Virus record (IMG/VR): IMGVR_UViG_3300031758_000005
Source: a virus
Lineage: Duplodnaviria > Heunggongvirae > Uroviricota > Caudoviricetes
Direction: 5' to 3' (one strand)
Length of the DNA: 64,000 bases
A program made the translations under genes and the position numbers. Shown piece by piece: positions 34,384 to 57,342 of the stretch; the first letter of the stretch is position 1; each line of letters starts with the position of its first letter. A model generated the notes under the pieces. It was not told the origin of the DNA, did not search any database, and saw only the letters and a list, made by a program, of their open reading frames with translations.

Positions 34384-34571
34384 TTACTTACATTCTCTGG
34401 TCCATTTGATGTATGAATACCCAAATACTTTACCTTGGTCAAATCCATAGGCATCTTGATGCGTTTCCAATCCCATAGGGCTGGTAGATCACTATCATCA
34501 ACAGCTTCCCATTCAATTTCCAATACAATTTTAGCAGATTTAGTTTTATTATTCATAACTTTCACGGTCAA
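34368..34571 (-). CDS. Hypothetical protein (67 aa)
   Basis: ORF. Confidence 0.4.
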   Translation of the reverse strand: MTVKVMNNKTKSAKIVLEIEWEAVDDSDLPALWDWKRIKMPMDLTKVKYLGIHTSNGPENVSNWMGN

Positions 34572-35646
34572 TGTTTGTCACATACGGAAATCTGGGCAGT
34601 TCATCACCAGGTGTAAGATTAAAATATTTCACCGTAGCACTCTTTCCAATAAGTTTATTTTTATTCTTCAAGAGTTCTTTTAGATATTCCCGAGTGCCTT
34701 TGATATTACTATGGAACTCAATTCCCTTATGATTCTTGAATACCATATATCCAGCCATACCACTCTTGTTGCCTATTCCTTCAACAATATCAAGAATTTT
34801 GAATTCACTATCTTGAAATTCTTTACGCTTGAGTAGGTATTTACTGCGCTTGTTTTCATATGGCCCATCGGTACGAACCATCTGACCTTCGTAACCTTCG
34901 TCAATGTACTTTTCATACAACTCATTCAAATGTGTAATCGTGTCCACAAGGTGAGTCGGAACACGACGAACCACATTGTTATTAACAAGATAAGTAGTAA
35001 TGTCAGCATTACGATCACTAAAAGTCTTCTGTACAATCCAGTCATATACCCAATATTGAATATTCTTTGCACTCTCAGTCAAATCTTCTGGTGTAGGTTT
35101 GGTCTTCTTTACCAAACTACAAATAGCATTAAAATCATTGGCAAACTTATCCGCATACAACTCACCATCAAGAATTGCATTTGGGAATTTAACAAAGAAA
35201 TCCTTCAATGCTACCAATACGTGAGGAGCTGAAACAATAGGTTTACCATTACGACTCCACATACCATCTTTCTTTACAACACAACGAATGCCATCCAACT
35301 TGGGTTGACTATAAACAGGATACTTCAAATCATCCTTATAATCGTCATAGTTCTTTGCCAACATTGGCTCAGTAAAACTAACTCCATCAATATCCGTGAT
35401 TTTTTCAAAGTAACCACTTTCTTTCTTTTTCTTCCAAGTGGCTTTGGCTTCTTTTACAGCTTGATCTTCATTGGAAGTAGCATTCTTTTTGCCGGTATTT
35501 TTACCAACACAAAGAGTCCATTCTGTAATTTGAATAGCCCCATCAAGCTGACCATAATGGGTACGATACTTGTTGCCATCAACTTCGATGGTCCAAGTTT
35601 GAATAGCACCCGTATTTGTACGGGCGAATAACATAGGTAGTTTCAT
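34549..35646 (-). CDS. ATP-dependent DNA ligase
   Basis: Motif I KLDGIRC (lysine adenylation site with the Arg typical of DNA ligases), motif III LDGELY, motif IV EGQMVR, motif V KYLLKRK. Confidence 0.8.
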   Translation of the reverse strand: MKLPMLFARTNTGAIQTWTIEVDGNKYRTHYGQLDGAIQITEWTLCVGKNTGKKNATSNEDQAVKEAKATWKKKKESGYFEKITDIDGVSFTEPMLAKNYDDYKDDLKYPVYSQPKLDGIRCVVKKDGMWSRNGKPIVSAPHVLVALKDFFVKFPNAILDGELYADKFANDFNAICSLVKKTKPTPEDLTESAKNIQYWVYDWIVQKTFSDRNADITTYLVNNNVVRRVPTHLVDTITHLNELYEKYIDEGYEGQMVRTDGPYENKRSKYLLKRKEFQDSEFKILDIVEGIGNKSGMAGYMVFKNHKGIEFHSNIKGTREYLKELLKNKNKLIGKSATVKYFNLTPGDELPRFPYVTNIDRESYE

Positions 35647-37575: not shown

Positions 37576-38001
37576 TTAATTTTTTACAATTTCACCCTTA
37601 GCATCACTATACCACACTTCACCCACATTAAATTGCTTGACCACACTTTGACAACCACAACACGGCTTGCTGTTGTTCAACTTACCCGTTCGATCCACTC
37701 TAAGTACAACCATTTTAAAATCACTCAGATTCTCACGACCACTCTTCATACACACACTCAACTCAGCGTGAAGTCCAACAAGCTGATGGTTTTTATAATC
37801 ATATTCCAAAGTCTTGGGATGACTCTTACAGCTGTTTGTACCAATATGTACAATTTTACCACATCGAATCAAAAAAGCTATATGACTACACCTATGCTCA
37901 ATGTTGAGCGGACACATAGCCTTAGCAATGTCAATGGTACGCTTCAGAATCTTGCTGTTCATTACTAAACTCATACTACCATCGACTTTATAAAAAATCA
38001 A
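37576..38001 (-). CDS. Small CDA-fold (cytidine/deoxycytidylate-type) zinc deaminase
   Basis: HAELS zinc-ligand/catalytic Glu motif and PCCGC second zinc motif. 141 aa. Confidence 0.5.
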   Translation of the reverse strand: MIFYKVDGSMSLVMNSKILKRTIDIAKAMCPLNIEHRCSHIAFLIRCGKIVHIGTNSCKSHPKTLEYDYKNHQLVGLHAELSVCMKSGRENLSDFKMVVLRVDRTGKLNNSKPCCGCQSVVKQFNVGEVWYSDAKGEIVKN

Positions 38002-38052: not shown

Positions 38053-38760
38053 ATGGAAAACCTTTATGTTGAAAAAATACACAATTCGATTGCCAAAGAA
38101 TTGATTGTTAAACATCATTATACACACAAGTGGACCATAGCCGAGTTGTGTATCGGAATTTACGACAAAAGCAAACGTAGTGTATTTTTTGACGTTCCTA
38201 CGCTGGTTGGCGCAGTTGTATTTGGACCCACTGCTGGCGCAAATGTGGCTAGAAGTGTGTCTCCACTATTAAATCATTCCAATTTATGGGAATTGAAACG
38301 ATTGTGGGTAGCAGATGAATTGGGTAAAAATACTGAAAGTTGGGTTATTGGTCAATGTTTGAAATATATCAAACAACATCACAGTGAAATAAAGTGTTTG
38401 ATCAGTTATGCTGATCCTGATGCTGGACACATTGGTACCATATATCAAGCTACCAATTGGCTGTATCAAGATATTGAAAGACGCAAAGGCACTAGTGGTT
38501 ATATTGTTAGTTTTGACGGTGGTATTAAATGGCAACACTCACGTACATTATTCAACAAATATGGAACATTCAACTATAATAAATTGGTGGAAGTGTTACC
38601 CAGACCATTTAAGATCAAAGAATTATCAGTTAAAGAACGATATATTTATCCTTTGGGAAGCAAAGTGGAAAAGAAAAATCTGATTAAAAGTTTGAATTAT
38701 CCCATTATAGAATATCCCAAACTCAAATCAGATAAAGAAACTGTAGTGGAATTTAATTAA
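38053..38760 (+). CDS. Hypothetical protein, possibly an acyltransferase-fold enzyme
   Basis: Lone + strand gene within the − block, with its own promoter-like element. The acyltransferase assignment is an impression from motif spacing only. Confidence 0.35.
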   Translation: MENLYVEKIHNSIAKELIVKHHYTHKWTIAELCIGIYDKSKRSVFFDVPTLVGAVVFGPTAGANVARSVSPLLNHSNLWELKRLWVADELGKNTESWVIGQCLKYIKQHHSEIKCLISYADPDAGHIGTIYQATNWLYQDIERRKGTSGYIVSFDGGIKWQHSRTLFNKYGTFNYNKLVEVLPRPFKIKELSVKERYIYPLGSKVEKKNLIKSLNYPIIEYPKLKSDKETVVEFN

Positions 38761-40019: not shown

Positions 40020-40751
40020 TTATTTTAAAGCCTTATAATTGTTGATGGGTGTATGCTTTTTTGTAAGTAAATCCTGATCAAGTACATCAATAGCTTTCTT
40101 TTTAGACTTATAAAAAGCATTGGTCAATACACGAAGTTCATAGTCTTCAATATTATATCCCATCTTGATATACTTAACCAATCGTTTCAACGTAACACTT
40201 GGATAATTAATGCTCTTTGGATTGAACTTCAAATTGTTATTTTGAATCTGGTTCAATACATTTTCTTCAATAACTACATTGTTACCATCATAAGCAATAC
40301 AACATAAATTGATATCAAATGACCTAAATAAATCTTCAATGGTATCAAAATACTTGAAACTCACACACTGAATCTTCCACTCTGTATCCATATAGGATAT
40401 TACCATTGTATGATGCCACTCAGATACAATATAACTGTTGACACTATACTTACCAGTTGATAAAGCATTGCTATTTAATTCAAGCAAATACTTATCCAAT
40501 TGTTCTTTGTTCTTAAAAAAGACATCCACATCACTATCACTCAGTGGTAGTTTACGATAGGTTCTATGTAAAGCACCCCCAGCAATCCAAGGTCCATCTT
40601 CATTACACTTGGGTAGAATCTCAATCAAATGTTCAAGTACACTACCAGTTGTCAAATGCTTTAGAAAAACATTCAACGACAGTTTATTTGTTTTAATTGG
40701 TACCACACATTCAGCTTGTGGCAGTTCTACGAATTTAACATCAGTTGACAT
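40020..40751 (-). CDS. Putative pol-beta-superfamily nucleotidyltransferase
   Basis: GGALHRTYRKLPLSDSDVDV fits hG[GS]x(9-14)DxD. Weak call. Confidence 0.35.
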   Translation of the reverse strand: MSTDVKFVELPQAECVVPIKTNKLSLNVFLKHLTTGSVLEHLIEILPKCNEDGPWIAGGALHRTYRKLPLSDSDVDVFFKNKEQLDKYLLELNSNALSTGKYSVNSYIVSEWHHTMVISYMDTEWKIQCVSFKYFDTIEDLFRSFDINLCCIAYDGNNVVIEENVLNQIQNNNLKFNPKSINYPSVTLKRLVKYIKMGYNIEDYELRVLTNAFYKSKKKAIDVLDQDLLTKKHTPINNYKALK

Positions 40752-40971
40752 AAATCTTCTTTAATAAATTTGGATAACAATTATCCTGATAAGTTTTGGT
40801 ATTCTTTCCACTACTATAACTCAAACATACACTTTCGTCAAGTACAGGTTCAAACTTGTGTTTAGTCTTATAAAACATATTTACACTATTATTGGTACAA
40901 GTCTGATAAAAATCACAACGTACACTCATACACATACCCAGATCATTGGTCTTAATACTATACTTTTTCAT
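40741..40971 (-). CDS. Cys-rich small protein
   Basis: Eight Cys in 76 aa. Confidence 0.4.
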   Translation of the reverse strand: MKKYSIKTNDLGMCMSVRCDFYQTCTNNSVNMFYKTKHKFEPVLDESVCLSYSSGKNTKTYQDNCYPNLLKKIYVN

Positions 40972-40973
40972 AA

Positions 40974-41011
40974 AAAAATAAGGGAGGTACTGTTATATAC
41001 CTCCCTTTTGA
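40974..41011. terminator. Bidirectional rho-independent terminator
   Basis: Stem GGGAGGTA / TACCTCCC flanked by AAAAAAATAA on one side and TTTTG on the other. Confidence 0.6.
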
Positions 41012-42064
41012 TTATTCCTTACTTCCAAGTAGGTAAGTATTGCTAATAGCCTTGAAACTAAACTCCCGTTCAAGACCACGAACAACTACACCTTCACGGT
41101 CAACACCCATATTCAATACACTCTTACCTTCAGCATACTTCAACATATTATCAACCAAGTTTTCATTGGGTAATACATATCCATACTTTTCAAGTACAGG
41201 TACCATTGGCACTTCCAACCTAAACAACAACCACTCCAGTTCATCAAAGAACATACGACGACCCTTATCAATGTCATAACCAGTAAAGAAAAACAACTTG
41301 TGGTCGCTCAATCCATACAAATTACCATTGATATTTGAACCAATCAATTCTCCCTGAAGCGCAATGTTCTTGCCATACTTAGTCAACTTATCCTTCAACT
41401 CAAGCATATTAGCCATACGCCATAGACTATTGTCATTGGTTTCAGTCAACTCCCAATTACGTCCACAAACACCAAATACACCATTATTGAAGTAACAAGT
41501 GAAACTAGTACCATCCAACTTCTCAGTGATATACACTCGTTCTCCAACAGGCACAAAACCAATGTCACTTTCAAAGTTCTGAATACGAGTTTCATCCGTC
41601 TTTGGAATAAAACTAGGAAATGTACCCTTGATCTTTCCAGCCAATTGAGCAGGAATAGGAGGTTCATACTTGACAATATCAAGAGCCTCTGTCAAATCAT
41701 CACCTTCCTTTGGATCAATTATACCATCTGGAATTGGAGTCAATAGACCTTGACTCAATTGTCCACGCAACTTGATGGTCTTAAGACGAAATCCTTCAGC
41801 GGTTCCCATACGCTTGAAACTACTCTTACGCAAGAATTCAAACTGAGGTCGGATAGGTAAGAAGCTGTCAATTTCATAATAAACAGCCAAGTCACCTACC
41901 TTATATTCTCCAACTTTCACGACTACATTCCACCCCTTTACCTTAGCCACAACAATGGCATCAGCACCAACAATAGGTTGAATGTCAACAATCTTTACAA
42001 CACTAGCTAACTTACGTTCCATATTTATCCTTTCTAAATTAATAAGAGTCAAACTCAACCTCAA
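41012..42064 (-). CDS. RNA ligase-like nucleotidyltransferase
   Basis: KxDG adenylation motif ITEKLDGTSF without the DNA-ligase Arg. N-terminal OB-like region. Terminator hairpin immediately downstream. Confidence 0.55.
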   Translation of the reverse strand: MRLSLTLINLERINMERKLASVVKIVDIQPIVGADAIVVAKVKGWNVVVKVGEYKVGDLAVYYEIDSFLPIRPQFEFLRKSSFKRMGTAEGFRLKTIKLRGQLSQGLLTPIPDGIIDPKEGDDLTEALDIVKYEPPIPAQLAGKIKGTFPSFIPKTDETRIQNFESDIGFVPVGERVYITEKLDGTSFTCYFNNGVFGVCGRNWELTETNDNSLWRMANMLELKDKLTKYGKNIALQGELIGSNINGNLYGLSDHKLFFFTGYDIDKGRRMFFDELEWLLFRLEVPMVPVLEKYGYVLPNENLVDNMLKYAEGKSVLNMGVDREGVVVRGLEREFSFKAISNTYLLGSKE

Positions 42065-42356
42065 GTGAATTGAAATTGATAGTAGACGGATCTACATTCA
42101 AATCAATACCACCATCAACAACAAAAACCTTCAAATCCTTCTTAATCTCGGTAGAAGGTCCACCACTACAGCTACAACCAGAGCTATAACACCAAGTGAC
42201 GTTACCATCCTTGTCTACACCAACACCCTCATAAGAGTGATGACCATAACCCCAATTCTCATTCTCAATCTCCTTGAAAATGACAACGATATCATCATCA
42301 AACTTGCTCTTAGGAAGAGCGTCCCAATTCTGTACAATGTAATCTACGATATTCAT
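42039..42356 (-). CDS. Hypothetical protein (105 aa)
   Basis: ORF with the consensus promoter directly upstream. Confidence 0.45.
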   Translation of the reverse strand: MNIVDYIVQNWDALPKSKFDDDIVVIFKEIENENWGYGHHSYEGVGVDKDGNVTWCYSSGCSCSGGPSTEIKKDLKVFVVDGGIDLNVDPSTINFNSLEVEFDSY

Positions 42357-42398
42357 TACTCATCTAAGTTACCACGGAGTTTATACAAAGTCAACAAA
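42357..42398 (-). promoter_or_regulatory. Conserved promoter upstream of 42039..42356
   Basis: − strand reads TTGACTTTGTATAAACTCCGTGGTAACTT-N9-ATG. Confidence 0.45.
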
Positions 42399-42425
42399 AA
42401 ACCCGCAGAATTTCTTCAACGGGTC
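42399..42425 (-). terminator. Weak terminator-like hairpin after the SPFH gene
   Basis: ACCCG / CGGGT 5-bp stem with a T6 run on the − strand. Confidence 0.3.
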
Positions 42426-42446
42426 ACCAATGTTACTTGTTATTTT

Positions 42447-43352
42447 TTACTTGTTGGTACTTCCAATATTAATGAATGGAACAACACCTCCACCATTATA
42501 CACCGGCAACTTACCATCCCACCTCTGAAGTGCTTCATACTGAACCAGTGACGGAGTTAGTGACTGTGCCAACACAAGGTTAGCTTTTGCTTGAGCCTCT
42601 GCCTTTAGAGCAATACTCCTTGCTTCACCTTCCGCCTTAGCAATATTACTTTCCTTCTCACCACGAGCCTTTTCAATCACTTGATCTGCCTCTGCCTTTG
42701 ACTGCTTGACCTTAGTCTCAGCCTCAATAGCACGTTGTGATGCTTCAAGTACTGCATTGATACGTGCCTGAACACTTTGATCTACACGAAGACCACCGTG
42801 GAAGCTAATCAACTCAAACTTGAATCCCTTGGGGCCAAGATGGGCATTGAGATTGCTCTTTACATTGTCAAGAAGGTACTGCTTACGTTCACCAAAGATA
42901 TCACTAGCTTTCATTGTACTAGCAACTCGGTTGAATGCATTATTGATTTCATTCCGCATAAATCCGTGGGTAATAACGTCTGGATCTTGTCGGAACTCAA
43001 CAAAGATTTGTGGAACCTTATCTGCCACAAATGTATAAGCAAGTGCAATATCTGCATTAACTACTGCACCCTCAATACTATTGAATGTAACACTATCATC
43101 ACCGGGACTTTCCTTTGAACCAGCTGCCCTATCCCACACAGCATTTTGCATAAATGTGGGGAACTTATAGATATCTTCTGTAAGAGGATTATAGAAGACA
43201 CCACCAGTCACAAGAGGAAAGTCATTGACTCCCTTCTGACTACCCCACTGATTTACCTTGATGCCAACATAACCAGGTTCAACCCTGTCACAACCAGTAA
43301 AGGTTGAAATGGCGACGATACCAGCAATAATACTAACAATGTTCTTATTCAT
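42447..43352 (-). CDS. SPFH/band-7 (stomatin/prohibitin/HflC-like) lipoprotein
   Basis: Lipobox ISTFTGC at the N-terminus. SPFH core with a C-terminal Ala/Glu/Lys-rich coiled-coil (EAETKVKQSKAEADQVIEKARGEKESNIAKAEGEARSIALKAEAQAKAN). Confidence 0.75.
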   Translation of the reverse strand: MNKNIVSIIAGIVAISTFTGCDRVEPGYVGIKVNQWGSQKGVNDFPLVTGGVFYNPLTEDIYKFPTFMQNAVWDRAAGSKESPGDDSVTFNSIEGAVVNADIALAYTFVADKVPQIFVEFRQDPDVITHGFMRNEINNAFNRVASTMKASDIFGERKQYLLDNVKSNLNAHLGPKGFKFELISFHGGLRVDQSVQARINAVLEASQRAIEAETKVKQSKAEADQVIEKARGEKESNIAKAEGEARSIALKAEAQAKANLVLAQSLTPSLVQYEALQRWDGKLPVYNGGGVVPFINIGSTNK

Positions 43353-43593
43353 TTTCTTTATTTTCTGACTTGATGTTCTTGACCAACTTGGTCACATCAC
43401 TTTTTAAGATTATCAGCGACCCGATAAAAAGTCCAGCGAAAAGTGCGGTTCCAACAAGATTTGCAACGTCACTCTTTTGATTAATTAAATTAGTGGATTG
43501 ATTAAACAAACAAGCGCCCACTGTAAGTACAACAAAATACTTTGCACAATACTTTACAATATTTTTATTACTAAACATAAATTTTTCATTCAT
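43345..43593 (-). CDS. Small membrane protein overlapping the SPFH gene (possible partner protein)
   Basis: Two hydrophobic helices. Its stop overlaps the SPFH start. Confidence 0.45.
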   Translation of the reverse strand: MNEKFMFSNKNIVKYCAKYFVVLTVGACLFNQSTNLINQKSDVANLVGTALFAGLFIGSLIILKSDVTKLVKNIKSENKENE

Positions 43594-43648
43594 ATCAAAT
43601 AGACTATACTACAAAAAAGAGGAACTGTCAAGTCCCTCTTAAATGTTT

Positions 43649-44293
43649 TTAATGATGTTTATCTTGCTTAACGTGATTCTTGTTCATCATAATCTTCTGA
43701 ATCTCTGGAAAAGACAACGGCTTGCCGTGACCATCCCAACCCACATCCAGAATTTTATTGTCTGGGTTATCAAGTTGAGTAGTTGGATTGGTATAGTGGC
43801 TGTGACCACTCAACTGCCAAGCACCCTTTTGCATCTGATTAAAAATCTGATGTGGGTAATGATGAATAACAATCATATGACCATTTACAATTAGTTCCTT
43901 GTAATAACCCAGATAAGTTATCTTACCAACTGCATATGGATACACTTCAATATCTTTACCATATTCAGTTGCAATAGCTTCTTCATACAATCTACGAATA
44001 CAACTGTTATGATTACCCCAAATATAAGCAATATTTTGACAATTGATTCGTGCTAGAATTTCATTGAACTCTGGAGGGGTAATGTTTAGACAAAAATCAC
44101 CCAGATGAATTAGTGTATCTTCTGGACGCACTACTTCATTAATCTTTGCAATCAAAGCATCATCGTGTTCATAACGATCTTTATAACCTCTAGCTTCAAA
44201 TATGAAACTTTGGTTATGCCGGAAATGAGTATCACTGGTAAAGAATACCTTGTGACTATCATTATGTGTTAGTTTTAGAGGTCTTTCAAACAT
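43649..44293 (-). CDS. Calcineurin-like metallophosphoesterase (putative polynucleotide 3'-phosphatase partner of PNK)
   Basis: Motifs DTHF ... GDFCLN ... GNHN. Overlaps the kinase gene by 8 nt. Confidence 0.7.
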   Translation of the reverse strand: MFERPLKLTHNDSHKVFFTSDTHFRHNQSFIFEARGYKDRYEHDDALIAKINEVVRPEDTLIHLGDFCLNITPPEFNEILARINCQNIAYIWGNHNSCIRRLYEEAIATEYGKDIEVYPYAVGKITYLGYYKELIVNGHMIVIHHYPHQIFNQMQKGAWQLSGHSHYTNPTTQLDNPDNKILDVGWDGHGKPLSFPEIQKIMMNKNHVKQDKHH

Positions 44294-44744
44294 AAATCAT
44301 TACATCAATTCCTTCATTAAAGGATGGATCTTCATATTTTGATAGCATCCTATCAATAATATTTGTAGGCACAACTCTACCACCTTGTTCTCCTCGTTTC
44401 TTGTTTCTTTCAATTAATCCTTGACGATCCATCTTGAAAACAATAGCAACTACTTTTGCACCATATTTCTTTGCAGTCTTAATATAGTCACTACGTTCCT
44501 TACGGTTTACACTGGTTGCGTCAACCAATACATTTTTACCATCTTTTAGAAATTCGTCAACCTTTCTTTTGATGTGACCGAAAACAAGTGGGGTAACAGT
44601 TTGATCTTCTTCACTTTTACCATATACAGCACGTAGTGAATCACTACTTAGATATTCAATATCTTTGTCTTTAATAAAGTTTTTTGCATATGTGGATTTA
44701 CCACTTCCAGGCAATCCAACCGCAATATAAAGTGTATTATTCAT
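44286..44744 (-). CDS. Polynucleotide 5'-kinase (P-loop kinase domain, T4 PseT kinase-like)
   Basis: N-terminal LYIAVGLPGSGKSTYA aligns with the T4 Pnk N-terminus (...GCPGSGKSTWA). 152 aa, kinase domain only. Confidence 0.65.
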   Translation of the reverse strand: MNNTLYIAVGLPGSGKSTYAKNFIKDKDIEYLSSDSLRAVYGKSEEDQTVTPLVFGHIKRKVDEFLKDGKNVLVDATSVNRKERSDYIKTAKKYGAKVVAIVFKMDRQGLIERNKKRGEQGGRVVPTNIIDRMLSKYEDPSFNEGIDVMIYV

Positions 44745-44782
44745 ATGTACATCTTAACTCAACTTGTTATAAAGTCAAGAAA
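44745..44782 (-). promoter_or_regulatory. Conserved promoter upstream of the PNK-phosphatase operon
   Basis: − strand reads CTTGACTT-N16-TAAGAT-N6-ATG. Confidence 0.4.
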
Positions 44783-44881
44783 ATTGTTAAGGGTAGGTAA
44801 AAGATGTTTATTTGGGGTACAATCTATGGTATATATGTAGTGTAATCAATGGTTGGTTACAGAGTAACAAAAGGTAAATAT

Positions 44882-45220
44882 ATGTTAAAGTATCTATTAG
44901 TATTGACCGCAGCATTGTCTTTAAATGCTCAACAAGGTCCAAAACAACCAAAAACAGGTGGACCAGATCCAGTACCACCACATTTGCGTCCTGAACGTCC
45001 CAAGTTGACTGAAGAACAAAAGAAGCAACGTAGTGAACTTGTTGCTAAATATGATGCAAATAAAGATGGTAAGTTGGACAAAGAAGAACGTATCAAGGTT
45101 AGTGACGCTGATCGTAAGTTAATGAGAAGTTTTGGTCCACCTCCAAGAGGTCCAAAACACGATGGTCCTCCTCCAACAAAAGATGGTGAAAGACCAGGTA
45201 AACCACACAAGAAGAACTAA
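44882..45220 (+). CDS. Secreted Pro/Lys-rich small protein with an EF-hand-like Ca-binding loop
   Basis: Signal peptide MLKYLLVLTAALSLNAQQ. DANKDGKLDKEE matches the EF-hand loop pattern DxNxDGxLDxxE. The track start at 44849 is probably too far upstream because the signal peptide begins at the second Met. Confidence 0.5.
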   Translation: MLKYLLVLTAALSLNAQQGPKQPKTGGPDPVPPHLRPERPKLTEEQKKQRSELVAKYDANKDGKLDKEERIKVSDADRKLMRSFGPPPRGPKHDGPPPTKDGERPGKPHKKN

Positions 45221-45229
45221 AACAAATAA

Positions 45230-45257
45230 CCCCACTAAATTAGTAGTGGGGTTTTTG
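45230..45257. terminator. Bidirectional rho-independent terminator
   Basis: Stem CCCCACTA / TAGTGGGG (8 bp) followed by TTTTTG. Closes the + strand EF-hand gene and the − strand gene at 45273. Confidence 0.65.
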
Positions 45258-45272
45258 ATTTATACTTAAAAA

Positions 45273-46346
45273 TTACGGTGTTTGTATAGCATTGAGTAAT
45301 GCTCTTGCTACAACACGATCTTTTTCTTTTTCTTCTTCAGGAAGTGAAGAATAATTTACATTTGACAATTTTCTTCTTTGTTCAATTTTAGCGTCCAATT
45401 TACCATTATCTCTCAACTTTTGAGTATCACTGAATTGGTCTGGGTTTGCCACAAACTTTTTAGCAGTTTCATTCCAACCACTATGAATTGCATCCGAAAT
45501 CTTTTCTATGTCAGTTACACCCGCGTCAATTACTCTTTTGGCAAATTCCGCTGATTTTAAATTGGCTTGCCATCCAAATGTATTACCCGGAGTGCTTCTA
45601 CCATAATGATAAGCATTATCCAATGCTTCATCACTAACGGTTGCCAAATCTTCTATTGACATATTTTCATTCAACTTCTTGTGTAGAAGTTTAAGATGCT
45701 TTTGAAATGTTTCGTTTAAAATATTCTGGTTCATATGATTATAAGTATCTTCGGTTATATGTAATTGTTTTAAAAAAAAGTCAACAATTTCTTTTATTAT
45801 AGGTGCTAATCCTTTCGTGGAAAACATAATATCAGATTCTTTTTCAACGTCATCAAAATCTAAATCATAACTTCCAAGCTTTAAACCATTAGTAATGATA
45901 TCACGTATACTTTTAAGTGCAGCTCCATCACCACTCAATCCTTTTTTATACAATATCAACTTTGCAACTTTCATTAATAAACCAATTGTAATTGTATAAT
46001 ATATCGTAATAGCAATATGTTTTAATTCAGATTCATCTTTTGTTTTTAGTTTTGGTATTTTTTTCAATACAAACACCAATCCATTAATATATGATGTAGC
46101 CCATTTATCAATATTATCTATTGCAATTTGAATTTTTGGTAACATAGTTTTTGTTACAAAATTTGCAGTCTTCGATTTGTTAGAATCAGCAAACAAATTT
46201 TTAGGCATAATTAATGCAATTAAATTTTTTACTATATTAAGAAATGCAGCAGATATTACTGGTAAGGTAAGCAGCAATGTCACAATTGATACTACATCTC
46301 CAATTCCTTCTACATATAGTTTTTTCTTATTTACATTTTTAGCCAT
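45273..46346 (-). CDS. Hypothetical protein (357 aa)
   Basis: ORF sharing an NETFQKHLKLLHKKLNEN motif with the next gene. Confidence 0.5.
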   Translation of the reverse strand: MAKNVNKKKLYVEGIGDVVSIVTLLLTLPVISAAFLNIVKNLIALIMPKNLFADSNKSKTANFVTKTMLPKIQIAIDNIDKWATSYINGLVFVLKKIPKLKTKDESELKHIAITIYYTITIGLLMKVAKLILYKKGLSGDGAALKSIRDIITNGLKLGSYDLDFDDVEKESDIMFSTKGLAPIIKEIVDFFLKQLHITEDTYNHMNQNILNETFQKHLKLLHKKLNENMSIEDLATVSDEALDNAYHYGRSTPGNTFGWQANLKSAEFAKRVIDAGVTDIEKISDAIHSGWNETAKKFVANPDQFSDTQKLRDNGKLDAKIEQRRKLSNVNYSSLPEEEKEKDRVVARALLNAIQTP

Positions 46347-46377
46347 ATTGATATAAATATATCTACAAAAAAATAAA

Positions 46378-46405
46378 CCCCACTAAATTAATAGTGGGGT
46401 TTTTG
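46378..46405. terminator. Bidirectional rho-independent terminator with the same stem sequence as 45230
   Basis: CCCCACTA aattaa TAGTGGGG, flanked by AAAAAAATAAA and TTTTTG. Confidence 0.65.
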
Positions 46406-46425
46406 CTTATTAAATTGATATAGTT

Positions 46426-47088
46426 TTAAACTAATACAGCGTCATATAACTGGTTTGAATTGGCTGCTTTTATTCGAAGATGAACTTTGCCATCACTTGA
46501 TGTGATTACATGAATTACCTCAGCACCTCTTAAACCAGCTGGTTCACTACCTTCATTAGTTACTTCATCAACTGGTCTTTTTACTCCGCCGGCTGTATAG
46601 AGTATATCCAATAATTGTTTAAAGTTTTCGTCACTCCAATTTGGAAAGTTGCTTCTAACATCAGGATCTCCTCCTCCTTGACTCATACTTACAAAATCTC
46701 TAGCGGACATTTGCAAAGATGATGAACCTTTGCCAAAATGTTTTATATATTGATTAGCAGTATCTTTTACTTCTTCATCGGAAACACCACTGCCTTTTTT
46801 AACAATTTTTACAAACTCATTTCCTTTCAATTCAAAACCTCTTTCTTTGAATGCATCCACCAATTCATTAAACTCAGGCGTGCCTTTTTTAATATCTAAA
46901 TCATTCAAAATAGTATCAACTTCAAATGAAGAGGTATAACCACTACTATTTTGATCTAACCAAAAGGCTAGTTTAGCATCTATAGTGTCGTCGTCAGGCT
47001 CAAATAATCCTTCATTCAACTGAAGTTTTTTATTTAGAAGACCCAAATGTTTTTTAAATGTTTCGTTAAGTAAATTGCTCATATACAA
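46426..47088 (-). CDS. Hypothetical protein (220 aa)
   Basis: N-terminal LLNETFKKHLGLLNKKL is paralogous to an internal segment of 45273..46346. Confidence 0.5.
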   Translation of the reverse strand: MYMSNLLNETFKKHLGLLNKKLQLNEGLFEPDDDTIDAKLAFWLDQNSSGYTSSFEVDTILNDLDIKKGTPEFNELVDAFKERGFELKGNEFVKIVKKGSGVSDEEVKDTANQYIKHFGKGSSSLQMSARDFVSMSQGGGDPDVRSNFPNWSDENFKQLLDILYTAGGVKRPVDEVTNEGSEPAGLRGAEVIHVITSSDGKVHLRIKAANSNQLYDAVLV

Positions 47089-47104
47089 TAAATATATACA
47101 AAAA

Positions 47105-47133
47105 AATAAAACCCATCAAATTAATGATGGGTT
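47105..47133 (-). terminator. Rho-independent terminator after the RNA ligase gene
   Basis: AACCCATCA / TGATGGGTT stem, with the − strand reading TTTTATTTTTTTG after it. Confidence 0.6.
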
Positions 47134-47139
47134 CTACTA

Positions 47140-48231
47140 TTAGTTCTTTAAGACTTGGAACATCAACTTCTTATATTCTTCCTTACCTAATGGACGATTA
47201 TCCAAGAGTTTAAATACAAAAGCAGCTCTGTTTGTTTCACCATAAGATGAAATAACCAGTTGTGCTTGTTCTTTTCTGGTAGGCAATGAACGAAGTCTGT
47301 TATTCACAAAACTATTCATACCATCCACAATCTTGTTTACTTCCTTCTTACCATCCGCAATACGGCTAATAGTACCTTTAATTTGTTCTGCTAACTCGAA
47401 ATCAAAGGTGGTAAAGATATAGTTATAAAAAGTGTTGTAGTCAGGCATACCCTGTTCCAACCACACATCCATAATTTTTTCCAGTGAACTAAGTTCAGAC
47501 TTTAGATGATGTAACAGGAGATATTTAGATGCTTTAATCTTATGAATAGTCTGATCATTCTTACTATATAAGCATACGCCTTCTTTATCTTGCCACTTAT
47601 CTACAATCTGTAACATATCAGTTATATCAGTAAAAGTATAGATTTCCGGACGAAGTAAATCATACTTCTTAGCCATAGCATCCAACATATCTTGTTGTGC
47701 AAGTGAATAGTTGATATGATTAATAAAACCAATCAACTTCCACATAGGTTCATCGCCATACGATAACACAATTTTATTGATTGGAGACAGCCATTCCCAA
47801 ATGATAGAATAACCCCAAGTATCATTGTTATCCTGTAACTTACTTAGAATAGTTGACTTGAACAATTCTAACTCAAAACCATTAGCCATAGTAGAAGCAT
47901 CAACAGTTCCACGGGTTCGTAGAATATATTGACCCTTATACTTGCTAACAATCAAAGTGCTACCGTCCAACTTTTCAACAACAGTGCAATGCTTCAATGA
48001 AGCAGGAACAGGAAAGTGTTCAGGATTCTCCCCATAGTTAGTAAACTTCGGAAATGATGCACTAATAACTTCACCCTCATAATTCACAACCACACTACGC
48101 ATGTGCTTGTTGTCTTGCGTCCACTTAGTGCCAATATTTTGGGGTTGAATCAAATGGACAATTTCACCGAAAGCGTGGAAATGGTGCACCATAAATTGAG
48201 TGCGGTCAACCTTATCTATGTCAATTTTCAT
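47140..48231 (-). CDS. RNA ligase-like nucleotidyltransferase (second copy, distinct family)
   Basis: VVEKLDGSTLIVSKY KxDG motif. Size of 363 aa is similar to T4 Rnl1. Leaderless-type promoter upstream. Confidence 0.55.
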   Translation of the reverse strand: MKIDIDKVDRTQFMVHHFHAFGEIVHLIQPQNIGTKWTQDNKHMRSVVVNYEGEVISASFPKFTNYGENPEHFPVPASLKHCTVVEKLDGSTLIVSKYKGQYILRTRGTVDASTMANGFELELFKSTILSKLQDNNDTWGYSIIWEWLSPINKIVLSYGDEPMWKLIGFINHINYSLAQQDMLDAMAKKYDLLRPEIYTFTDITDMLQIVDKWQDKEGVCLYSKNDQTIHKIKASKYLLLHHLKSELSSLEKIMDVWLEQGMPDYNTFYNYIFTTFDFELAEQIKGTISRIADGKKEVNKIVDGMNSFVNNRLRSLPTRKEQAQLVISSYGETNRAAFVFKLLDNRPLGKEEYKKLMFQVLKN

Positions 48232-48268
48232 AGATTTATCTTACAACAGATTTTAAAGAAAGTCAAGG
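48232..48268 (-). promoter_or_regulatory. Conserved promoter upstream of RNA ligase 47140..48231
   Basis: − strand reads CTTGACTTTCTTTAAAATCTGTTGTAAGAT-N6-ATG. The −35 overlaps the stop of the upstream gene. Confidence 0.45.
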
Positions 48269-50654: not shown

Positions 50655-51182
50655 TTAAATGTCAAACACTTTTCCGTCAAAATATGCTTTACATCCCAAA
50701 ACTCGGTCAATCGCAAAGATTTTCACATCAGCTTCACTAAACATAGTAAATGTAGCATTATCGTGTCCCTTCCATTGTTCACGTTGTGCCTCATTACACA
50801 AATCATTAAATTGCCGGTGTATATAAACATCTTTGATGCCACTTTGGATGATTCCCCTAGCACAGTCTGCACAAGGCAAAGCATTGGTATAAAGAATTGC
50901 GCCATCGGTGTTTATACCGTACCTAGCAGCTGCGTAAATCGCATTGCGTTCACCGTGTTCGTACCATTTGTACTTTTCTGGTCGTTCGTTACGAATTTCA
51001 TTTTTGTCTGCTACCCCAATAGGAATGCCATTGAAGCCAGTAGATATGATTCGTTTGTCTTTTACAATGAGAGCACCAATCTTTGTCTTGGGATCTTTGG
51101 ATTTACTTGCAACCCAATAGACTCCTTGTAAAAACCATTCGTTCCAATCTGGTGGTGTATAATTTAATCCCATAAGTGACAA
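50655..51182 (-). CDS. dCMP deaminase
   Basis: HGERNAI zinc/catalytic motif and PCADCA motif. Overall T4 Cd-like layout, 175 aa. Confidence 0.8.
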   Translation of the reverse strand: MSLMGLNYTPPDWNEWFLQGVYWVASKSKDPKTKIGALIVKDKRIISTGFNGIPIGVADKNEIRNERPEKYKWYEHGERNAIYAAARYGINTDGAILYTNALPCADCARGIIQSGIKDVYIHRQFNDLCNEAQREQWKGHDNATFTMFSEADVKIFAIDRVLGCKAYFDGKVFDI

Positions 51183-55532: not shown

Positions 55533-56213
55533 ATGAAAATAATATCTGGAATTTATAAACTCACATCACCGTCCGGAAAATGTTATATTGGTCAAAGTAA
55601 AAATATATATCAAAGATTTCGTGATCACAAAAGAGCTAATAAACATAAACATTGCAAGTTATATGTTGCAATTAAAAAATACGGATACGAAAATTTTAAA
55701 AAAGAAATAATAGAAGAATGTAACAAAGAAATTTTAGATAAAAAAGAACAATATTGGATTAAATATCACAACTCCGTTGATAACGGATATAATTGTGATT
55801 ATGGTGGACAAATTCATAAAGAATTTGGAAAAGAACATAGAGAAAAATTACGTGCAGCATTTTTAGGAAAGTATAATGGCAACCAAAATATTGAATTTTA
55901 CATAGATAACATTTTGTATAAATCAATTGGTGATGCTAGTAAAAAATTAAATATACCCCCTAAAACGATATATAATAGGTTAAATTCTAAAAACATAGAA
56001 TTTGATAATTATAAATATAAAGATGTAAATTTAATACCAACCAGAAGTATTAGAAAATACGCATCACAACCTTTTATTATTGATGGTATAAAATATACCA
56101 CTATAAAAGAAGCGTCTGAAGTATTAAATATACCATCATCAATATTGAGAAGAAAATTAAAATCTGGTAAATTGTCAAATTCATCATATATTACACCGCA
56201 ACATCCGCTTTAA
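55533..56213 (+). CDS. Free-standing GIY-YIG homing endonuclease with C-terminal HTH (NUMOD-like) DNA-binding repeats
   Basis: GIYKLTSPSGKCYIGQS...R...H...YWIKYHNSVDNGYNCDYGG GIY-YIG core. Two C-terminal repeats (YKSIGDASKKLNIPPKTIYNRL and YTTIKEASEVLNIPSSILRRKL). Convergent 23-nt overlap with thyA. Confidence 0.8.
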   Translation: MKIISGIYKLTSPSGKCYIGQSKNIYQRFRDHKRANKHKHCKLYVAIKKYGYENFKKEIIEECNKEILDKKEQYWIKYHNSVDNGYNCDYGGQIHKEFGKEHREKLRAAFLGKYNGNQNIEFYIDNILYKSIGDASKKLNIPPKTIYNRLNSKNIEFDNYKYKDVNLIPTRSIRKYASQPFIIDGIKYTTIKEASEVLNIPSSILRRKLKSGKLSNSSYITPQHPL

Positions 56214-57342
56214 TTGTTGGGTGTGATTGATAATCTATTAACTTAATATCATCATATTTAAAATCAAATAATGATTTTATTTCAGGATTCAACCACAATT
56301 TTGGTAACTTCATTGGTTCTCTTGACATTTGTAGTTTAATTTGATCCAAATGGTTCGTATACAAATGTGCGTCACCGATTGAGTATGTCAATGTACCAGT
56401 AGCCATATTGCTTACATGCGACATCATTGCTACCATCAGTGCATATGATGCTATATTAAATGGCTTCCCAAGAAAAATATCATTTGATCTGATTGTCATC
56501 ATTAAATTCAAACGACGGGTTGGAATATTAGCGTCATTTAATACTTTTTCATTCATTTCAGGCACAGATACCCATCCTTTATTTCCTCCTGATTTTCTGT
56601 ATAAATCAAATCGTTCTTCCAGTGTCAATTCTTCTGTATTAAAAATTAGAAAACAATGACAGGGCGGTAAGGCGCAATGATCTACCCAATGTGGATGCCA
56701 TGCTGATACGATCATACGACGATCATCTGGATTGGTTTTTAGCTTGTCAATTACTTTTTGTAGTTGATCTATTCTACCAAAAAACCACGATTCGGCATAA
56801 TCACCTTTTGTTCCACTCACAGTACCTTTGGGACAAGTGCTTGCATCATTATCATTCACGGTGGTATAAAACGGAAAATTTCTCCACATTCCGCCATACG
56901 TTCCTTCACCTAATTCACCCCATAAAAGTGCAAAATTTGGGTCATCTTTAATTTCTTGAATGAAACGCTCTTGAGTCCAAGAAGACCGCCACCGATTCCC
57001 ACCCAAATCGCCATACGGATTTGCTTCATAGGTTTCTTCAGGATGAGATTTGCAAAAATCAATATAGCGTTTATATGCCCACTCATTCCAGATTCTAACG
57101 TTATTGTCAACCAGATACTTGATATTTGTATCACCACTAATGAACCACAGCAATTCGTGAACAATAGCTGGCCAATGAACTTTCTTTGTGGTTAATAGAG
57201 GAAATGCATTTAGATCCACATTGTATTTGGCTTGAGCACCAAAAATGCCAATGGTATCTACCCCAGTTCTGTTCTTTTTAAGTTTTCCGTTTGTCAAAAT
57301 ATCATTGACAATTCTGAAATATTCTGTGTCTACTTTGTTCAT
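56191..57342 (-). CDS. thyA: Thymidylate synthase (ThyA) carrying unusual insertions
   Basis: DRTG...FPLLTTKKV...IVHELLWFISGDTNIKYL, NDPDDRRMIVSAWHP, ALPPCH (catalytic Cys), FLGKPFNIASYAL (Asn conserved, pointing to dUMP specificity), GDAHLYTNH, REP..LP, HP.IKA.VAV. 383 aa versus ~265-320 aa typical. Confidence 0.9.
   Translation of the reverse strand: MNKVDTEYFRIVNDILTNGKLKKNRTGVDTIGIFGAQAKYNVDLNAFPLLTTKKVHWPAIVHELLWFISGDTNIKYLVDNNVRIWNEWAYKRYIDFCKSHPEETYEANPYGDLGGNRWRSSWTQERFIQEIKDDPNFALLWGELGEGTYGGMWRNFPFYTTVNDNDASTCPKGTVSGTKGDYAESWFFGRIDQLQKVIDKLKTNPDDRRMIVSAWHPHWVDHCALPPCHCFLIFNTEELTLEERFDLYRKSGGNKGWVSVPEMNEKVLNDANIPTRRLNLMMTIRSNDIFLGKPFNIASYALMVAMMSHVSNMATGTLTYSIGDAHLYTNHLDQIKLQMSREPMKLPKLWLNPEIKSLFDFKYDDIKLIDYQSHPTIKADVAV

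Follow-up and report, generated by a model that had tools for sequence, protein, structure and literature searches.

Phage T4 heals RNA ends that carry 5′-OH and 2′,3′-cyclic phosphate and then seals them, using Pnkp, a kinase fused to a HAD (DxDxT) phosphatase, together with the ligases Rnl1 and nick-sealing Rnl2. In the bacterial Pnkp-Hen1 systems (Clostridium thermocellum Pnkp; Capnocytophaga Pnkp1-Rnl-Hen1), Pnkp combines three activities in one polypeptide, which includes a lambda-phosphatase-type domain and has Rnl4 as its ligase, and its partner is the methyltransferase Hen1. A survey of RNA repair in jumbo phages (Iyer et al. 2021, PMC7824862) described sets in which RNA ligases, polynucleotide kinases and phosphatases are combined with an accessory Pol-beta nucleotidyltransferase, RlaP being among these nucleotidyltransferases. 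The chief ligase families that it names are Rnl1 and Rnl2, and its phosphatases are usually HAD enzymes, with calcineurin-like ones occurring rarely. The Rnl5 ligases, such as DraRnl (Deinococcus) and NgrRnl (Naegleria), require that the strand supplying the 3′-OH be RNA, and their physiological substrates are not known (PMC4408790).

Here, in a window of 64,000 nucleotides (the whole stretch of DNA that was analysed) from an uncultured jumbo phage, two RNA ligases, an RNA 5′-end kinase and a metal-dependent phosphoesterase look able to jointly mend host-cut RNA. Given the family assignments, the intact catalytic residues, the operon structure and the conservation of the set, the region probably represents a heal-and-seal RNA repair set that shares the logic of T4 but is built from other parts. 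As in T4, an Rnl1-family ligase is combined with a second, nick-sealing ligase among early phage genes; however, the kinase stands alone and is nearer to bacterial Pnkp kinases, a separate metallophosphoesterase takes the place of the HAD phosphatase, and the second ligase is an Rnl5 enzyme with an N-terminal OB domain instead of Rnl2. The locus resembles Pnkp-Hen1 in its kinase, whose best PDB matches are from these systems, and in a calcineurin-superfamily metallophosphoesterase with a predicted role in 3′ healing, whereas its proteins are separate, its phosphoesterase belongs to another family, its ligases are Rnl1-like and Rnl5, and Hen1 is absent. The four open reading frames and the motifs ITEKLDGTSF, VVEKLDGSTL and GLPGSGKST, on which a preliminary description had based a similar interpretation, were all found; the frames are real and intact, and lie at the coordinates given in that description, on the minus strand.

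Two RNA ligases of different families

Profiles and an alignment with NgrRnl assign the 336-aa product of 41012..42022 (minus strand; ligase A) to the Rnl5 family (DraRnl/NgrRnl) of nick-sealing RNA ligases. An OB domain forms its N-terminal part and is joined to a nucleotidyltransferase domain. The protein scores 192.2 bits against TIGR02306 (cut-off 151.15), matches PF21189 (2.8e-39) and PF09414 (2.6e-25), and aligns end to end with the NgrRnl structure 5cot (E = 1.9e-70). The domain layout is that of the Rnl5 ligases DraRnl and NgrRnl and the active-site residues are identical; ligase A keeps all 12 of those that PMC7261155 names for NgrRnl, and K168 is predicted to be the adenylylated lysine. 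The gene had been thought to begin at a TTG at 42064, but the start is most likely the ATG at 42022 (MERKLAS, with AAAGGA before it), because homology to NgrRnl opens exactly at that codon.

The second ligase (47140..48231, minus strand, 363 aa; ligase J) is a distant Rnl1-family (T4 RnlA-like) ATP-dependent RNA ligase. It matches PF09511 (8e-11, 42.6 bits, cut-off 28.3), phrog_562 (1.4e-32, residues 35-360) and the T4 Rnl1 structures 2c5u/5tt6 (about 2e-8), and falls below the NCBIfam equivalog cut-off, being too divergent. T4 residues R54, K75, K99, G102 and E159 correspond to R45, K62, K87, G90 and E146, and E227, G228, K240 and K242 to E217, G218, K231 and K233; the nucleophile and motifs III, IV and V are intact, K87 is the predicted adenylylated lysine, and the substitutions relative to T4 Rnl1 are K119 to R107 and F77 to T64. 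Profile assignment had been named beforehand as the test for both proteins, and it placed them in the DRB0094/Rnl5 and Rnl1 families, respectively; by profile and structure matches, both stand apart from capping enzymes and from DNA ligases. Since the window has its own true and separate ATP-dependent DNA ligase (34549..35646), there is no need to invoke the two RNA ligases in replication.

A kinase overlapping a metallophosphoesterase

The stand-alone polynucleotide 5′-OH kinase (44286..44744, minus strand, 152 aa) matches AAA_33 (2.8e-27), phrog_505 (1.4e-22) and the N-terminal domain of TIGR04075 (bacterial Pnkp; 6.9e-23), in agreement with its earlier reading as a Pnk-type enzyme. Its key residues are P-loop K16, general-base D35, R38, D75 and lid R113/R117. 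On sequence comparison it is nearer to the bacterial Pnkp kinase than to T4 Pnk, its PDB matches being the C. thermocellum Pnkp kinase (CthPnk, 2.4e-16), Pnkp1 (3e-12) and T4 Pnk (8e-9).

Polynucleotide kinases generally accept DNA besides RNA, and the kinase and phosphoesterase could instead heal DNA ends (5′-OH and 3′-phosphate) for the phage DNA ligase, with Rnl5 sealing ribonucleotide-patched DNA nicks, in a role in genome maintenance and not RNA repair. Genes of DNA and nucleotide metabolism are abundant nearby (the DNA ligase, thymidylate synthase, deaminases and a Mom-like protein), and the phi92-like and K8 cassettes described below also have a DNA ligase near. Moreover, Rnl5 can join an RNA 3′-OH to a DNA 5′-phosphate, and Deinococcus without DraRnl is radiation-sensitised (PMC4408790, PMC5397189). 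Nevertheless, Rnl1 enzymes are specialists for tRNA loops and single-stranded RNA, Rnl5 works only where the 3′-OH strand is RNA, the kinase is nearest to dedicated RNA-repair kinases, and the 2H fusion described below suggests RNA cyclic-phosphate chemistry; we regard DNA-end repair as rather improbable.

The neighbouring gene (43649..44293, minus strand, 214 aa) encodes a binuclear metallophosphoesterase of the aq_1665/phrog_547 family, as judged from its match to phrog_547 (4e-39) and its motif residues D21, H23, D66, N94, H95, H145, H164 and H166. It has no match in Pfam or NCBIfam, and PDB entry 1xm7 is matched at 3.5e-5 by the single sequence and at 3e-11 by a profile of the family. Across 88 family members the five metallophosphoesterase motifs are all kept, and the dinuclear metal site is complete, with H23, G65-D66, G93-N94-H95, H145 and H166 invariant and D21 and H164 near-invariant. 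The start of the gene overlaps the kinase stop codon by 8 nt (ATGTTTGA, 44286..44293), as had been noted, and the enzyme is of the calcineurin superfamily and translationally coupled to the kinase, as proposed. The likeness to bacterial Pnkp over T4, which had been suggested for both proteins, did not extend to the phosphoesterase: the family profile retrieved aq_1665 (3e-11), GpdQ (1.6e-5) and MPPED2 (1e-3), but lambda phosphatase only at 0.76, and the C. thermocellum Pnkp phosphatase was absent from the family-profile matches. A Pnkp-type (lambda-phosphatase-type) assignment was thus rejected, and the likeness is confined to the kinase.

Purely from its gene context, the phosphoesterase is predicted to be an RNA 2′,3′-cyclic-phosphate / 3′-phosphate end-healing enzyme, and it may do just one of the two 3′-healing steps because an HD domain adjoins it in some genomes. 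Two points count against a healing role: we know of no member of the aq_1665/phrog_547 family with a characterised substrate, and the nearest characterised relatives, GpdQ and MPPED2, are small-molecule diester enzymes.

Transcription units and recurrence of the gene set

Leaderless-type promoters (TTGACT-N16/17-TAAGAT-N6-ATG) lie immediately 5′ of ligase J (48238..48266, minus strand, N17, ATG 6 nt further) and of the kinase-phosphoesterase pair (44751..44778, minus strand, N16, ATG 6 nt further); neither of the other two repair genes has a promoter of this type directly ahead of it. The claim that each ligase has such a promoter therefore stands for ligase J but not for ligase A, where the promoter (42366..42394, minus strand, TTGACT-N17-TAACTT, ATG 9 nt further) belongs to the upstream ORF 42039..42356 and by inference serves ligase A too. 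In the whole window, 12 such combinations of promoter and start codon were counted, whereas 100 shuffles gave 0.18 on average and never more than 2. Ligase J is monocistronic because of an intrinsic-terminator-like hairpin with a T-run directly 3′ of it (47105..47138, minus strand); kinase and phosphoesterase share one promoter and one terminator-like hairpin, which ends their bicistronic unit 3′ of the phosphoesterase (43617..43640, minus strand), and another terminator-like hairpin lies directly 3′ of ligase A (40980..41007, minus strand). Instead of the single module proposed earlier, the genes thus form three transcription units, and these are separated by variable cassettes that encode an SPFH lipoprotein, proteins of 357 and 220 aa and, on the opposite strand, a secreted protein.

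The 105-aa ORF 42039..42356 (minus strand), first gene of the ligase A unit, had no match in family searches, and whether it belongs to the repair set is doubtful, since relatives that lack the SPFH cassette lack this ORF as well. On the other side of ligase A, a 243-aa Pol-beta-fold nucleotidyltransferase (40020..40751, minus strand; phrog_1614 3e-9; G58-G59, D74-x-D76 and D146 invariant) may be part of the set, as a candidate accessory RNA 3′-end repair enzyme. It lies 3′ of ligase A in most close relatives, with the order kept in at least 20 related contigs, and in one relative other genes stand in its place. Its Foldseek matches, from a query model of low confidence, are weak and all Pol-beta nucleotidyltransferases; assignment to RlaP was rejected for want of a PF10127 match, in which it differs from the RlaP-containing sets surveyed (PMC7824862). 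A 76-aa Cys-rich ORF (40741..40971, minus strand) overlaps the nucleotidyltransferase start by 11 nt and is kept between it and ligase A in relatives; family searches returned no match.

The three promoter-terminator units and the unrelated variable cassettes between them would also fit four independent early genes, brought together within 7 kb by chance, and the phrog_562 label ('RNA ligase and tail fiber protein attachment catalyst') would fit an Rnl1-like protein that mainly attaches tail fibres like T4 gp63. However, the order Rnl1-like, kinase-phosphoesterase, Rnl5 is the same in 23 related viral contigs, with Rnl5 directly following the phosphoesterase in four of the 23, and the repair genes are adjacent in related contigs without the cassettes, which counts against chance proximity. 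With the ligase catalytic residues intact and the same families repeatedly co-localised in distant phages and bacteria, operons and fusions included, chance assembly seems very unlikely, although some of the proximity could be incidental in a neighbourhood crowded with independently promoted early genes.

Cassettes of the phosphoesterase, an Rnl1-like ligase and a small kinase (phrog_547, phrog_562 and AAA_33) occur in phi92-like coliphages, Pseudomonas phage K8 (Pakpunavirus) and Vibrio phage 166E36-1, at about 30-35% identity to this phage and in comparable surroundings of early and nucleotide-metabolism genes, with a DNA ligase close by. Their genes are contiguous in the order phosphoesterase, ligase, kinase, whereas in the present phage kinase and phosphoesterase overlap and the ligase forms its own unit 3 kb upstream; Rnl5 is absent from the stretch examined in those phages, and their genome annotations label the three genes separately, without a link. 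In a 205-kb viral contig (phosphoesterase 36% identical), Rnl1-like ligase, HD, phosphoesterase, kinase and Rnl5 lie within 6 kb. A Ruminococcus genome contains an operon of kinase-HD, phosphoesterase and Rnl5, Pasteurellaceae genomes a kinase::Rnl1-like fusion followed by the phosphoesterase, and one archaeal genome a fusion of a 2H (2′,3′-cyclic phosphodiesterase superfamily) domain to the phosphoesterase. Among 39 distant phosphoesterase lineages, 13 have a same-strand Pnk-type kinase within 6 kb, seven of them with an RNA ligase too; 26 have no Pnk-type kinase within this distance, and about two thirds have neither kinase nor ligase less than 6 kb away, which counts against a healing role.

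The 26 lineages could point to cleavage of a small-molecule phosphodiester (e.g., a nucleotide intermediate, or an immune signal derived from a cyclic nucleotide or from ADP-ribose) and not of RNA ends; kinase adjacency would then reflect a nucleotide-centred pathway, and RNA might even so be repaired by the kinase and the ligases, with the 3′-OH coming from elsewhere. The kinship to the diesterases GpdQ and MPPED2 fits this alternative, as do the nucleoside 2-deoxyribosyltransferase-like domains fused to some family members (lineages L132 and L134), which hint at nucleotide substrates, and the destruction of immune signals by phage phosphoesterases is well established (PMC11974786). Nevertheless, the 8-nt overlap is with a Pnk-type kinase, kinase adjacency is found in both gene orders in independent lineages and often with RNA ligases, and the 2H fusion exists. 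The stand-alone kinases of such cassettes would otherwise be left without a 3′-phosphatase partner, a gap noted for Pakpunavirus, whose kinase was described as having no phosphatase (PMC12846349). A small-molecule substrate is considered unlikely.

Proposed repair scheme and its meaning

Under the preferred reading of RNA repair, we infer what the phosphoesterase acts on, how the two ligases share the work, and a role in counter-defence. The metallophosphoesterase (43649..44293) would strip the cyclic or 3′-phosphate to leave a 3′-OH, its co-translated kinase partner (44286..44744) would add a phosphate to the 5′-OH, and either ligase could then close the break. The Rnl1-like ligase (47140..48231) might act on breaks in single-stranded loops, e.g., the anticodon loop, and the Rnl5 ligase (41012..42022) on nicks in duplex RNA, e.g., stems of tRNA or rRNA, in parallel to the Rnl1/Rnl2 pair of T4, and the Pol-beta nucleotidyltransferase encoded 3′ of the Rnl5 gene may refill nucleotides missing at the 3′ end. 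Counter-defence against PrrC/RloC-type nucleases would be a reasonable analogy with T4; no tRNA genes were found in the window, which counts against the repair reading as a whole. The observation made in the preliminary description is thus confirmed, and its interpretation as a whole partly supported.

Such toolkits have been described before; the one point that invites experiment is the predicted activity of the phosphoesterase family. Ligase A differs from DraRnl and NgrRnl in being phage-encoded, and the arrangement of kinase, phosphoesterase and Rnl5 is found in its close relatives and in one Ruminococcus genome, therefore providing a candidate pathway for the orphan Rnl5 ligase family.

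Organisation of the predicted repair genes in an uncultured jumbo phage

The preliminary description had read four minus-strand genes as an RNA-repair module, and all four were confirmed as predicted repair genes: an Rnl1-like ligase (ligase J, 47140..48231), a stand-alone polynucleotide 5′-OH kinase (44286..44744), a metallophosphoesterase (43649..44293) and an Rnl5-type ligase (ligase A, taken as 41012..42022 within an ORF that reaches 42064). Megablast of the 7.2-kb region found no cultured-phage relatives. Since the region is shared at 80-95% protein identity by 23 IMG/VR contigs, the largest of 295,831 bp, the source phage is a member of an uncultured jumbo phage lineage known only from metagenomes. 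Between 1 and 31 kb of the window the plus strand codes for baseplate and tail-fibre proteins, and between 32 and 64 kb the minus strand holds genes of nucleic-acid metabolism, among them those for deaminases, a Mom-like protein and thymidylate synthase; the Mom-like DNA-modification gene itself (38053..38760; PF25680, 6e-44) runs on the plus strand, opposite to the early genes that surround it. Together with two cytidine/dCMP-deaminase-like genes (37576..38001 and 50655..51182, both minus strand) and a homologue of thymidylate synthase (383 aa, 56191..57342), it suggests that the phage modifies its own DNA. An ATP-dependent DNA ligase gene, separate from the RNA ligases (34549..35646, minus strand; phrog_114, 4e-75), is 5 kb away from Rnl5, and phi92-like and K8 phages also have a DNA ligase near their phosphoesterase/ligase/kinase cassette. 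A search of the window for tRNA genes found none.

The repair set is arranged in three units with variable cassettes between them, and not as the compact module first proposed. Ligase J forms a unit by itself, between a promoter and a terminator of its own; the kinase and phosphoesterase genes overlap by 8 nt and share one promoter and one terminator; and in the third unit ligase A comes after an ORF of 105 aa. The proposal that each ligase gene has its own promoter thus holds for ligase J but not for ligase A, where the promoter precedes the 105-aa ORF and a Shine-Dalgarno-like AAAGGA precedes the ligase gene. These promoters belong to a class with the form TTGAC(T/A)-N16-17-TAnnnT, often with TG in front, and are separated from the ATG by only 4-10 nt, so that the early mRNAs are expected to be leaderless or nearly leaderless. 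The promoter-plus-ATG arrangement occurs 12 times in the window (13 when distances of up to 30 nt to the ATG are allowed), always on the minus strand between 35646 and 61353 and never on the plus strand, compared with a mean of 0.18 and a maximum of 2 in shuffled sequences. The enrichment is confined to this specific arrangement, as a generic sigma-70 scan found 34 promoters in the region against 36 expected.

Of the cassettes present or absent among relatives, one lies between the phosphoesterase and Rnl5 genes and consists of an SPFH/Band-7 lipoprotein gene (42447..43352, minus strand; phrog_200, 9e-62) and two small ORFs (43345..43593 and 42039..42356). It is missing from several close relatives, and in four relatives Rnl5 directly follows the phosphoesterase. 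Another comprises neighbouring ORFs of 357 and 220 aa (45273..46346 and 46426..47088), which share the peptide motif LNETF-KHL-LL-KKL and vary among relatives; each is followed by a near-identical terminator hairpin (AAACCCCACTAnTAATTTAGTGGGGTT; 45228..45253 and 46375..46402), and a C-terminal LPEEEKEKDR stretch of the 357-aa product resembles a RyR domain by eye, with no Pfam match. Also between the units, and grouped with the variable cassettes, is the only plus-strand gene of the region (44849..45220), divergent from and upstream of the kinase and conserved in all relatives; its 123-aa secreted-type product has a signal-peptide-like N-terminus, Pro/Gly-rich tails and an EF-hand-like loop, DANKDGKLD, with a weak Pfam match. 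In close relatives, free-standing homing endonuclease genes occur within the repair set (L003 2914-3774 and L013 6974-7906, minus strand; L007 11645-12376, plus strand): a GIY-YIG or LAGLIDADG gene splits the kinase from the phosphoesterase, breaking the 8-nt overlap, and a GIY-YIG/NUMOD3 gene closely precedes the one for Rnl5.

Family assignment of the two ligases and the kinase

Rnl5 enzymes are defined by the sealing of 3′-OH/5′-PO4 nicks with RNA as the 3′-OH strand, and ligase A is, as judged from its sequence, a nick-sealing RNA ligase of this type, for which sealing activity is predicted. It scored 192.2 bits against TIGR02306 (RNA_lig_DRB0094), over the equivalog cut-off of 151.15, with a match that covers ORF residues 19-346 and positions 2-340 of the 341-position model. 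Its architecture consists of an N-terminal OB domain (PHA02142; PF21189, 2.8e-39) and an RNA_ligase domain. All 12 active-site residues of Naegleria NgrRnl (R4, D53, K121, T145, R149, K170, D172, R190, E227, F248, E312 and K326; PMC7261155) are kept, as R3, D52, K118, T142, R146, K168, D170, R188, E225, F246, E310 and K324. The two proteins align end to end (1.9e-70), and no C-terminal appendage extends past the nucleotidyltransferase domain: only 3 residues of the protein follow the alignment, which extends to position 336 of 340.

The preliminary description had called the two ligases unrelated, and they show no significant pairwise similarity outside motif I. Ligase J exceeded the cut-off of Pfam PF09511 (RNA_lig_T4_1; 42.6 bits against 28.3) and matched phrog_562 over nearly its full length (1.4e-32, aligned through residue 360), but fell far under that of the NCBIfam equivalog TIGR02308 (58.1 bits against 242.25); its matches to T4 Rnl1 structures were about 2e-8. 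The catalytic residues of T4 Rnl1 are reportedly R54, K75, F77, K99, G102, K119, E159, E227, G228, K240 and K242, as worked out by Wang, Schwer and Shuman in 2006. Nine of these 11 are identical in ligase J, in which the nucleophilic lysine is intact, as are motifs III, IV and V. The exceptions are K119, conservatively replaced by R107, and F77, replaced by T64 with a Phe one position before. The pairwise alignment to T4 Rnl1 ends at query residue 269 (T4 residue 279), and the C-terminal helical domain is the source of the tRNA specificity of T4 Rnl1. Ligase J is thus classed, by profile and residue matches, as a divergent Rnl1-family ligase at the superfamily/Pfam level and not as a T4 RnlA equivalog.

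The kinase is a 152-aa AAA_33 protein with no second domain, in agreement with the early reading of a kinase without a fused HAD phosphatase. Its closest solved structures are the kinase of Clostridium thermocellum Pnkp (CthPnk; 2.4e-16) and Pnkp1 (3e-12), followed by T4 Pnk (8e-9). A P-loop, GLPGSGKST (K16), is followed by SSDSLR, which contains the putative general base D35 and R38 (aligned to CthPnk D38 and R41), and by RNKKRG with the lid arginines R113 and R117, so that the motifs place it, as a predicted member, in the T4 Pnk/CthPnk clade of polynucleotide 5′-OH kinases. T4 Pnk aligns over its kinase domain only, and the C-terminal HAD (DxDxT) 3′-phosphatase to which the T4 kinase is fused has no counterpart in the protein. 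The bacterial Pnkp model TIGR04075 likewise matched in the kinase domain only (positions 9-131 of 851; 80.8 bits against a cut-off of 750). Pnkp matched better than did nucleotide kinases or seryl-tRNA(Sec) kinase (PSTK). A role as a 5-hydroxymethyl-dU DNA kinase was also considered, because thymidylate-synthase-like and Mom-like genes lie nearby; the best matches, and the ligase neighbours of the kinase in other genomes, argue against it.

The metallophosphoesterase and its genomic neighbourhoods

The phosphoesterase had no match in Pfam or NCBIfam and matched phrog_547 (4e-39) and the uncharacterised Aquifex protein aq_1665. Its membership of the calcineurin-like binuclear metallophosphoesterase superfamily comes from five motifs (DxH, GD, GNH(D/E/N), H and GHxH), which are invariant or near-invariant over 88 diverse homologues and are represented here by D21-x-H23, G65-D66, G93-N94-H95, H145 and H164-x-H166. 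In searches with the family profile, aq_1665 (1xm7; 3e-11) was followed by the diesterases GpdQ and MPPED2, lambda phosphatase was not significant (E = 0.76) and the Pnkp phosphatase was not found. A Pnkp/lambda-phosphatase type was thus rejected, and the supposed likeness to bacterial Pnkp stands for the kinase and fails for the phosphoesterase. The best 120 matches listed by a word-indexed protein search were all close relatives of at least 82% identity, and a first scan of reference genomes found no close relatives. The diversity of the family was sampled from a library of representatives, in which it comprises 6782 cluster representatives at E < 1e-3; among the best 150 of these, almost all are stand-alone proteins of about 200-230 aa.

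Neighbourhoods were surveyed, with profiles built here, in 57 viral contigs and five cultured-phage loci, whose phosphoesterases form 39 clusters at 60% identity. A Pnk-type kinase lies within 6 kb on the same strand in 13 of the 39 clusters, often as the direct neighbour and on either side. Nine clusters have a ligase of the Rnl1-like or Rnl5 type, and seven have both kinase and ligase. The phosphoesterase (phrog_547), an Rnl1-like ligase (phrog_562) and a small AAA_33 kinase are side by side in phi92-like coliphages, Pseudomonas phage K8 and Vibrio phage 166E36-1; in Flavobacterium phage immuto the phosphoesterase adjoins a tRNA cluster, and in Staphylococcus phage P108 it stands alone. A 205-kb contig with a 36% identical phosphoesterase holds an Rnl1-like ligase, an HD protein, the phosphoesterase, a kinase and Rnl5 inside 6 kb, and a Ruminococcus MAG has an operon of kinase-HD, phosphoesterase and Rnl5. 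Furthermore, in two Pasteurellaceae a fusion of P-loop kinase and Rnl1-like ligase (L114 4463-5959; L124 4453-5937) is immediately followed by the phosphoesterase, and in an archaeal MAG (L133 3256-4554) the phosphoesterase is fused to a protein of the 2H (2′-5′ RNA ligase/cyclic phosphodiesterase) superfamily.

From the kinase operon, the recurrent neighbourhoods and the 2H fusion, we infer that the phosphoesterase heals RNA 3′ ends (2′,3′-cyclic or 3′-phosphate). As an HD or 2H partner is often present, it may carry out only one of the two 3′-healing steps. About two thirds of the phosphoesterase lineages have no kinase or ligase neighbours, which counts against an RNA-end role, and two genomes of gut bacteria (L132 5089-6069; L134 5530-6519) encode a family member fused to a nucleoside 2-deoxyribosyltransferase-like domain, a hint that some members act on nucleotides instead of RNA ends. 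Nevertheless, because the neighbourhoods recur in cultured phages, distant viral contigs and reference genomes, an RNA-end role is the best reading for this protein, yet the weakest link of the repair set.

A predicted repair pathway and its parts

In the proposed pathway, the phosphoesterase would make the 3′-OH and the kinase the 5′-phosphate, whereupon the Rnl1-like ligase would close breaks in loops and Rnl5 nicks in duplex regions. Trimmed 3′ ends are rebuilt by RlaP (PMC12776372), and the Pol-beta-fold nucleotidyltransferase downstream of ligase A (40020..40751, minus strand) may restore them in a similar style, though outside the RlaP family: it had no match to PF10127 even at E <= 10. 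Most relatives have two genes after Rnl5, a Cys-rich ORF of 76 aa and the one for the nucleotidyltransferase (243 aa; Pol-beta signature G-G...DxD...D); one relative has different genes at this place. An AlphaFold model from a shallow alignment was weak (pLDDT 52) and gave only weak Foldseek matches to Pol-beta nucleotidyltransferases (E 2e-3 or worse, TM about 0.25-0.3), consistent with a generic Pol-beta fold and no more. Homologues in other genomes (L053, L057-L059) bear the precomputed Pfam label PF26128. In another jumbo-phage lineage, in which no kinase or ligase is nearby, a phosphoesterase of 46-47% identity has a distant homologue of the nucleotidyltransferase (E about 1e-24) less than 3 kb away.

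RNA repair is a classic phage answer to host anticodon nucleases, and to our knowledge it has been worked out by experiment almost only for T4. The window's set would follow the same logic as T4 Pnkp, Rnl1 and Rnl2, but its kinase is separate, whereas that of T4 Pnkp is fused to a HAD 3′-phosphatase. Bacterial Pnkp, by contrast, is a single polypeptide of kinase, lambda-phosphatase-type phosphoesterase and Rnl4 ligase with Hen1 as partner, an arrangement that the set does not share; neither Hen1 nor Rnl4 was found among the scanned ORFs. The early interpretation is right in substance and wrong in the type of phosphoesterase, the ligase A promoter and the compactness of the module, its functional claims being inferential.

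Earlier work has already described heal-and-seal counter-defence in jumbo phages, in which calcineurin-like phosphatases are occasionally used, so no new principle emerges here. A survey of 224 jumbo phages described repertoires of ligases, kinases, phosphatases (mostly HAD) and RlaP nucleotidyltransferases, 'a small number' using calcineurin-like or HD domains (PMC7824862). The available text of a 2025 Pakpunavirus paper lists a kinase without a 3′-phosphatase domain and two ligases, and does not tie the neighbouring phosphoesterase to the kinase (PMC12846349). Phage Rnl5 homologues were noted before, and the physiological substrates of Rnl5 are not known (PMC4408790). The locus and the cassette that recurs elsewhere indicate an alternative set of components, apparently a common one, in which a kinase of the Pnkp type that stands alone is combined with an uncharacterised family of metallophosphoesterases and with Rnl1-like ligases, Rnl5 ligases or both. 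With confidence evenly divided, we propose that the aq_1665/phrog_547-type proteins are a widespread, biochemically uncharacterised class of RNA 3′-end-healing enzymes. In some bacteria, and in considerably more than a thousand sequenced phage genomes, they would be the 'missing' phosphatase of stand-alone Pnk kinases, and with an Rnl1-like or Rnl5 ligase they would form a modular repair system, the first physiological pathway for the orphan Rnl5. The value of these results lies in a sharpened, testable hypothesis on this phosphoesterase family and on the role of Rnl5. If the phosphoesterase does heal RNA 3′ ends, this would explain how repair is completed in many phages with a phosphatase-less kinase, add one more enzyme family to the RNA-repair toolbox, and suggest a biological role for Rnl5 ligases.
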